Part shown: positions 2,135-2,699 of the stretch, one piece after another
How the letters are laid out: every line of letters starts with the position of its first letter
How positions within the stretch are numbered: position 1 is the first letter of the stretch
Origin: a virus
Virus genome (UHGV): UHGV-0256785
Reading direction: 5' to 3' (one strand)
DNA: 26,660 nt
Translations under genes and position numbers: made by a program
Notes under the pieces: model-generated
Databases searched by the model: none
What the model saw: the letters and a program-made list of their open reading frames with translations, nothing else
Told to the model about the DNA's origin: nothing

Positions 2135-2699
2135 ATGACAACTCAAATCTCTGTTGAAACTCTCTCCCCGATCACTCATAACCAGATTCCTGTAATTACC
2201 ACTGAACTTTTGGCGCAGCTTTATGGCACCGAAATTCTGAATATCCAGGTTAACTTCACCAGAAACAAAGAGCGTTTTGTCGCAGGAAAGCACTTTTTTA
2301 AAGCAGCGGGTGAGGAATTAAAAAAAATTGCGACTTACTTTAAGTAAGTCACAAAATCCCATCTCTCCCAAAACCCGCTCCCTCATTCTCTGGACAGAAC
2401 GAGGCGCAGCCCGTCACGCCAAAATGCTCGAGACCGATCAGGCGTGGGATGTGTTCGAAAAACTGGAAGACTGTTATTTCAGCCAGAAACAGCCACCAGC
2501 AGCACAAAACTCCCCCACCGAAAATGATGGATGCGCATTACTGATCCACTTCGATAAACACGGTCAGGTCGACTTCACGGAAAAAGTACCCGCCGATGCG
2601 ATGGTATGCACTCTGGAACGGTTTAAATTTTATCTGGAACAACGCGGCTGGATCGTTGCCCGTAAAGAGCAGCTGGTGGAACGACTGATGCGGCTTTAA
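2135..2699 (+). pseudogene. ORF6N-domain (antirepressor-like DNA-binding) gene split into two frames (2135..2347 and 2328..2699) at an A8 homopolymer; pseudogene, sequencing error or slippage site
   Basis: First ORF ends 6 codons after the A8 run at 2320-2327; the second frame opens inside the same run and continues the domain (LTLSKSQNPISPKTRSLILWTERGAARHAKM); removing one A fuses them into a single ~188 aa protein. Confidence 0.55.

Follow-up and report, generated by a model that had tools for sequence, protein, structure and literature searches.

A probable +1A frameshift pseudogene allele of an AnrP-like anti-repressor gene in an E. coli isrK/C4 prophage cassette

The isrK/C4 cassette and its interrupted gene

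The window, by which we mean the whole stretch of 26,660 nucleotides that was analysed (viral genome UHGV-0256785), carries on its plus strand, in this order, a Q-like antiterminator gene, a promoter, an isrK sRNA, a C4-like RNA with a short upstream ORF, and an anrP-like gene. The antiterminator gene (1458-1853), the counterpart of antQ of Gifsy-1, matches PHROG 79 'anti-termination protein Q-like' (E 4e-52), and the Pfam family Phage_antitermQ was found on the Q-like gene in related loci. It is followed at 1858-1887 by a sigma-70-type promoter (TTGACC, 18 nt, TATATT; 10 of 12 matches), the sole promoter-like site in a scan of 1700-3300, from which an isrK-like RNA is predicted to start at about 1894. 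The isrK-like Hfq-binding sRNA with its intrinsic terminator covers 1894-1971 (Rfam RF01394, 69.1 bits, gathering threshold 50), the terminator scan placing the stem at 1950-1966 with a T-run behind it, and the sRNA overlaps a c4-a1b1 motif at 1881-1934 (RF03163, 47.8 bits, gathering threshold 46.7). A C4 antisense-RNA-like element at 1997-2081 (RF01695, 65.7 bits, gathering threshold 45) overlaps an ORF of 27 codons at 2001-2084, which by translation is the counterpart of Gifsy-1 orf45. The anrP-like gene lies in two pieces at 2135-2347 and 2328-2699, and past it the terminator scan found an intrinsic-terminator-like hairpin with a T-run at 2775-2802. Because isrK, c4-a1b1, C4, the promoter, the terminator and the Q-like gene are all present, the locus can be taken as the E. 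coli version of the isrK-orf45-anrP cassette.

When transcription in Gifsy-1 reads through the IsrK terminator, the resulting mRNA is inactive until IsrK opens it in trans; AnrP is then translated by coupling to orf45, antQ expression goes up and growth stops (PMC4825925). The two cassettes share the gene order, a 187-aa ORF6N anti-repressor-like gene and a structured leader with an upstream ORF, the window matching the isrK model with 69 bits and its repaired protein being 56% identical to AnrP over the full length. They differ in that the anrP-like gene of the window is frameshifted, in that Gifsy-1 orf45 has 45 codons and overlaps the anrP ATG as AUGA whereas the 27-codon ORF ends 50 nt before the ATG, and in that the Q protein of the window is of another, shorter type (131 aa versus 225 aa). 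IsrK-dependent activation of the anti-repressor and induction of Q are known for Gifsy-1 only (PMC4825925), the E. coli cassette being known from sequence. The C4-like element coincides with the 27-codon ORF, which is a frame-shifted counterpart of the 45-codon orf45, and this suggests that the conserved feature is the RNA and not the peptide. The immI operon of P1 and P7 (c4 antisense RNA, icd and ant) is similar in that the C4 (RF01695) and c4-a1b1 (RF03163) motifs stand upstream of an anti-repressor gene; by these Rfam matches the window too would have an RNA-controlled anti-repressor cassette, and the anti-repressor of the window differs in having an ORF6N domain.

The anrP-like gene is broken at a homopolymer. 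Read directly, positions 2320-2327 are AAAAAAAA, an uninterrupted A8 run with a T on each side and one of only three runs of at least eight in the window. The ORF at 2135-2347 encodes a 5' fragment of 70 aa that ends in EELKKIATYFK (GEELKKIATYFK) and a stop, its last six residues, IATYFK, being out of frame. The 3' part of the gene is in the +1 frame, open from TTG at 2328 (the start of the ORF as called mechanically) to TAA at 2699; it holds the remainder of ORF6N and the C-terminal region and is colinear with residues 62-187 of STM2616/AnrP. The two frames share only 2328-2347, just past the A8 run. Computational removal of one A gives an ORF of 564 nt, 187 codons and a stop, very close to the roughly 188 aa that had been estimated from the letters by a sequence-only reading of this DNA.

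That reading had described an ORF6N gene interrupted at the A8 run with its halves in different frames, and the sequence, the frames and the Pfam matches bear this out. The N-terminal piece matches ORF6N (PF10543) at profile positions 3-55 of 86 (E 1.8e-13) and the C-terminal piece at 58-86 (E 0.02), so that the two are consecutive parts of one domain and not a chance occurrence. With one A removed, the whole protein covers profile positions 3-86 of 86 (E 2.2e-20, 73 bits; the cut-off is 27.8 bits). This repaired protein is also matched over residues 1-187 of 187 by PHROG 2379 'anti-repressor' (E 3e-90) and is 56% identical over 186 residues to STM2616/AnrP of Gifsy-1 (E 6e-67), the two being colinear, of equal length and the same in their first 27 residues. 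Hershko-Shalev et al. (2016) placed the anti-repressor-like anrP directly downstream of the Gifsy-1 Q gene (PMC4825925), and STM2616 is the immediate downstream neighbour of that gene. The intact gene thus consists of an ORF6N domain and a small C-terminal domain, 187 aa in all. The window copy has no uninterrupted frame and gives a full-length ORF6N match only after one A is removed; judged on these grounds it is a pseudogene allele of the AnrP-like ORF6N family and not an intact member.

Elsewhere the window has the makeup of a lambdoid late region: a methyltransferase, two tRNAs and genes for lysis, head and tail, none of which is interrupted; the other long genes, namely, those for the terminase (699 aa), portal (501 aa), tape measure (1034 aa) and tail tip (1159 aa), are unbroken. 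The two tRNA genes, tRNA-Thr (TGT) and tRNA-Gly (TCC), lie at 4487-4640 between the DNA methyltransferase and the lysis genes.

Recurrence and ancestry of the A8 tract

The comparison with intact homologues that had been proposed was carried out. Thirteen of 5426 complete E. coli genomes differ from an 81-nt tract probe by one missing A only, and in these 13 the gene is a single intact CDS of 187 or 188 aa annotated as 'ORF6N domain-containing protein'. The closest intact relatives read A7TT, and alleles at a greater distance have A6TTT, with K-N in place of K-K, or lack a run altogether. All of 80 diverse IMG/VR homologues found by a profile search are in one frame across the tract, as are five phages and Gifsy-1, and the intact relatives encode a single protein of 187-245 aa. 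Since every intact relative is in frame, with A7TT, A6TTT or another sequence, A8 is the derived state, and the suggestion that this is a pseudogene made by a slippage mutation gains support from the fact that the intact relatives all encode one continuous protein. A7 itself looks like a recent AAT-to-AAA change limited to one sub-clade. Separately, anrP of Gifsy-1 (STM2616, L040) has an A7 run of its own at codons 58-60 (GAA AAA AAC), four codons upstream of the E. coli tract.

The A8 run recurs. No A8 was found in the 5426 complete RefSeq E. coli genomes or in the four IMG/VR loci that matched the pattern, and a scan of the GTDB genome_contigs found nothing, which says little because that collection has one genome per species. 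These early counts (0 of 5426 and 0 of 4) led us to expect a singleton, an expectation that was overturned by the metagenome scan and by look-up of the exact protein. The IMG/VR and metagenome pattern scans together gave seven loci with A7 and one with A8, and one metagenome contig (L009) agrees with the window at every position (100%) of a 1420-nt stretch that includes the A8. Among NCBI, ENA and Logan assemblies the exact 70-aa product turned up on at least 23 contigs and in 43 index blocks, with a single one of these contigs occurring in 14 samples. A haplotype of 971 nt, which combines A8 with a synonymous T at 2176 (2176T), is identical in 11 loci including the window, that is, in at least ten other datasets. 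The flanks of this haplotype part from the window to the left of about 1241 or 1338 and to the right of 2837, 3438 or 3591, and the differing points of divergence imply several recombination events in the history of the A8 allele. P0016, the intact protein whose sequence is that of the repaired product, is found in 390 index blocks compared to 43 for the truncated product, so the A8 form makes up about one tenth of the occurrences.

The sequence-only reading had allowed that the eighth A could be a sequencing or assembly error, the true tract being A7 and the gene intact, and we give this hardly any probability. Homopolymers are classic sites of indel errors and, as stated above, the complete RefSeq genomes are free of A8. 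The second A8 occurrence, in L015 on the haplotype of L006, also looks technical because two +1 homopolymer indels are all that separates it from L006, its twin with A7, over 5.5 kb. For this reason L015 was downgraded as an independent origin of A8 or a sign of a hot switch; its A8 may be technical or may come from a mutator strain. Against an error stands the complete linkage of A8 and 2176T, identical over 971 nt in 11 loci and at least ten other independent datasets that passed through three assembly pipelines including MEGAHIT, and no other long gene in the window is broken. With A8 present in many independent datasets with differing flanks, an assembly error can in practice be set aside.

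The hairpin beside the A-run and the rival readings

Directly 3' of the A-run, at 2328-2354, lies a hairpin with a 12-bp stem and a 3-nt loop (TTGCGACTTACT tta AGTAAGTCACAA) that was identified by folding (-15.9 kcal/mol, z -3.9) and by covariation. It occurs in one to three tandem copies of 30 nt across 86 homologous loci (L042-L125 among them), and each copy encodes a 10-aa repeat, L[RQ]xxLxxSQN. Homologous units show compensatory changes in the stem, some of them through synonymous codons. In 14 distinct units, which are related in sequence and were chosen with a pairing filter, 84% of cells pair compared to 27-44% when the 3' partner is slid; seven of the 12 stem pairs change on both sides, and the covariation score was reached by none of 500 shuffles. 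The corresponding position in Gifsy-1 has a hairpin too, of unrelated sequence, and a search of Rfam in E-value mode with the hairpin matched no family. Read on the minus strand from 2354 to 2320, the element is a hairpin with T8 behind it and was called as intrinsic-terminator-like, and E. coli-type units have T5-8; neither an antisense promoter nor a minus-strand gene was found near it. A minus-strand intrinsic terminator may be the reason for the A-run; it fits the E. coli-type units, but the Gifsy-1 hairpin has no T-run. In addition, the T6 run of the HFFK codons (GCACTTTTTT; 2290-2299) is 90% complementary to the A-run region (AAAAAATTGC; 2322-2331); these arms are 22 nt apart and could provide an alternative mRNA pairing for the A-run.

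A far-reaching reading of these features is that the A-run and the covarying hairpin form one functional element, an antisense terminator or a pause or frameshift site, in which A6, A7 and A8 are heritable on/off (or full-length/truncated) settings and the 70-aa product or the OFF state is selected. If so, the setting of a toxic anti-repressor would tune prophage inducibility across E. coli lineages, but we think it very unlikely. Another reading is a phase-variable contingency locus, in which slipped-strand mispairing toggles A7 against A8 or A6 and the anti-repressor is on or off at the level of the population; this too has a small probability. For it speak the A6/A7/A8 polymorphism at one site on at least two, possibly four, near-identical backgrounds and the fact that the gene product belongs to a circuit that is toxic in Salmonella (PMC4825925), which means that OFF could be advantageous. 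Against it, 2176T goes with A8 in all 11 carriers, and no 2176T allele with A7, as expected of a revertant, was seen among 104 complete genomes matching the region, 10 intact-allele loci and 8 pattern-scan loci: all 10 intact-allele loci and the seven A7 loci of the pattern scans have 2176C, and none of the 104 genomes has 2176T; of the roughly 430 index blocks, 20 were read. On the exact N-terminal background only tracts of plus or minus one (A6, A7 and A8) exist, the products of A5, A9, A10, A7T3 and A6T4 being absent from a collection of 15 billion proteins. Moreover, A7 is short for a contingency tract, and the irreversible knock-outs described below (nonsense, IS, second frameshift) point to plain decay or to selection for loss. 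A slippage-dependent switch, which had been raised as one possible reading of the locus, therefore finds no support as a conserved or programmed feature; the split layout amounts to the A8 lineage and one weak second case.

Programmed recoding would make the full-length protein from A8 by transcriptional slippage, or by +1/-2 frameshifting on AAA-AAA-A, with the hairpin and a GAGG aiding. To regain the frame, the transcript must lose one nucleotide or gain two (-1 or +2), or the ribosome must shift by +1 or -2. A stable hairpin does begin right past the run and an SD-like GAGG lies 5-8 nt upstream of it; runs of eight As are productive in some organisms, and there is an E. coli example of slippage that restores an ORF (Baranov et al. 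2005, PMC1088944). Similarity to such A/T-run slippage systems (PMC1088944; PMC5574713) thus lies in an A8 within a coding sequence where a change of transcript length could restore the frame, the difference being that -1 or +2 is needed here and that the disrupted form is not conserved. The usual threshold of selection against slippery A/T runs is nine nucleotides (PMC1088944), and Traverse and Ochman (2017) found that transcription errors in A/T runs of E. coli are nearly all insertions, deletions within the run being very rare (PMC5574713). The common +1 error, giving A9, leads to a dead-end frame that finishes with KKNCDLL and a stop, and because rescue needs -1 or +2 while +1 errors dominate, any rescue should be small. 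The 80 IMG/VR homologues, the five phages and the 13 complete E. coli genomes are in frame and the split copies are a single haplotype, which is not what a conserved split layout would give. In-frame homologues that have no slippery run possess the hairpin just as well, which speaks against its being a signal specific to frameshifting. AUU, the codon in the A site, is not known to be slow, which counts against ribosomal frameshifting. Taken together, programmed recoding is highly improbable, but some transcriptional or ribosomal slippage at A8 may occur such that a little full-length protein is still made.

A -1 frameshift in the A7 allele was also considered. In dnaX-type -1 programmed frameshifting the signal is A_AAA_AAG with a 3' hairpin. 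The zero frame of the intact A7 gene reads TT A AAA AAA and then the hairpin, and a -1 shift there would give the same 70-aa product as A8. Unlike in dnaX, the heptamer is found in one sub-clade only, most homologues having G AAA AAT, T AAA GAA or similar, and the spacer between run and hairpin is 0-4 nt. As a conserved mechanism this was rejected, since most homologues keep the hairpin but not the heptamer. A functional split gene, in which a 70-aa N-terminal peptide and a C-terminal protein of 123 aa from TTG 2328 (or of 91 aa from ATG 2424) both act, is just as improbable as programmed recoding. The SD-like GAGG (2312-2315) is 12 nt before TTG 2328, the 20-nt overlap of the ORFs makes coupling possible, and at every A8 locus both ORFs are among the gene calls. 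However, the break falls inside one Pfam domain, between profile positions 55 and 58 of 86; no diverged homologue with a two-gene layout was found among the 80 from IMG/VR; and the A8 allele is young, with no variation from which selection could be read. Two separate conserved genes with the same boundary, which had been named as a finding that would speak against a broken gene, were not seen, the split copies being one identical allele and not diverged homologues. It is conceivable that the 123-aa fragment is translated separately by re-initiation at TTG 2328, and this fragment is without two thirds of the ORF6N domain.

Other lesions and the likely consequence

Further lesions were found in this gene. 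An A6 (-1) allele that is robust, being identical in two datasets (L024 and L025; L024:3001-3530), carries a second indel downstream in the same gene, A5 to A6 at the position corresponding to about 2583 of the window, as expected of an older pseudogene. Another A6 locus, L023, was discounted as an error-prone assembly on account of five other 1-nt gaps. The nonsense mutation Q38* (CAG to TAG, gene nt 112) is present in L026:2809-3372, L028:2809-3372 and L029:1576-2139 on two haplotypes, one A7TT and one A6TTT. In L027 an IS encoding a 307-aa DDE_Tnp_1 transposase (L027:1483-3112) is inserted one base short of the A-run, where 9 bp, GTGAGGAAT (2310-2318 of the window), are duplicated. One product of another lineage (P0014) shows a C-run frameshift in the anti-repressor gene, and a related broken copy (L004) was already labelled 'frameshifted' by NCBI PGAP. 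The variety of these lesions (A8, A6, the nonsense mutation, the IS and the C-run frameshift) suggests that the gene is dispensable or counter-selected in lysogens and decays; the A7 run is its most mutable site.

The most likely explanation, in which we have good confidence, is that the window carries a real, heritable +1A frameshift pseudogene allele of the AnrP-like anti-repressor in an isrK/C4 cassette. The allele distribution leads us to infer that an AAT-to-AAA change (N64K) in one sub-clade would have lengthened A6 to A7, and that replication slippage would then have added one A to give A8. Translation of this allele would leave the frame past Lys64 and stop six codons later, and the predicted 70-aa peptide would be without the most conserved half of ORF6N (LILWTERGAARHAKML...) and without the C-terminal region. 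The lack of both makes it very probable that the anti-repressor is inactive, and by analogy to Gifsy-1 the route from IsrK through AnrP to Q, with the prophage gene expression and toxicity that it brings, would be cut. The A8 allele is stably inherited and has been carried into several prophage mosaics. No substitution was found in the 971 nt across the 11 loci and there is no further decay, so the A8 lineage is young.

The frameshift alone is a routine homopolymer pseudogene of a kind already flagged by standard annotation pipelines. It resembles the homopolymer frameshift pseudogenes of prophages that PGAP labels 'frameshifted' in being an indel of plus or minus one in an A/T run of an accessory gene with intact relatives, and differs from them in that the allele is unusually well replicated, at about 10% of the index blocks for this exact protein (43 versus 390). 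Its wider interest is limited to two points. [quoted passage not shown] The other point is the adjacent conserved hairpin, which was previously unremarked in this gene family and is backed by compensatory changes.

The module of promoter, isrK, C4 and anti-repressor is mobile, as seen when a locus of E. coli AREA_497 (L041) is compared with two Stx phages, VT2-Sakai (L043, 17415-18149) and CP-1639 (L042). At the AREA_497 locus the module is absent and another Q type lies directly before a 65-aa gene and the methyltransferase. In the Stx phages the module is in the nin region, between the dam-like methylase and roi, and its anti-repressor has a different C-terminal domain.
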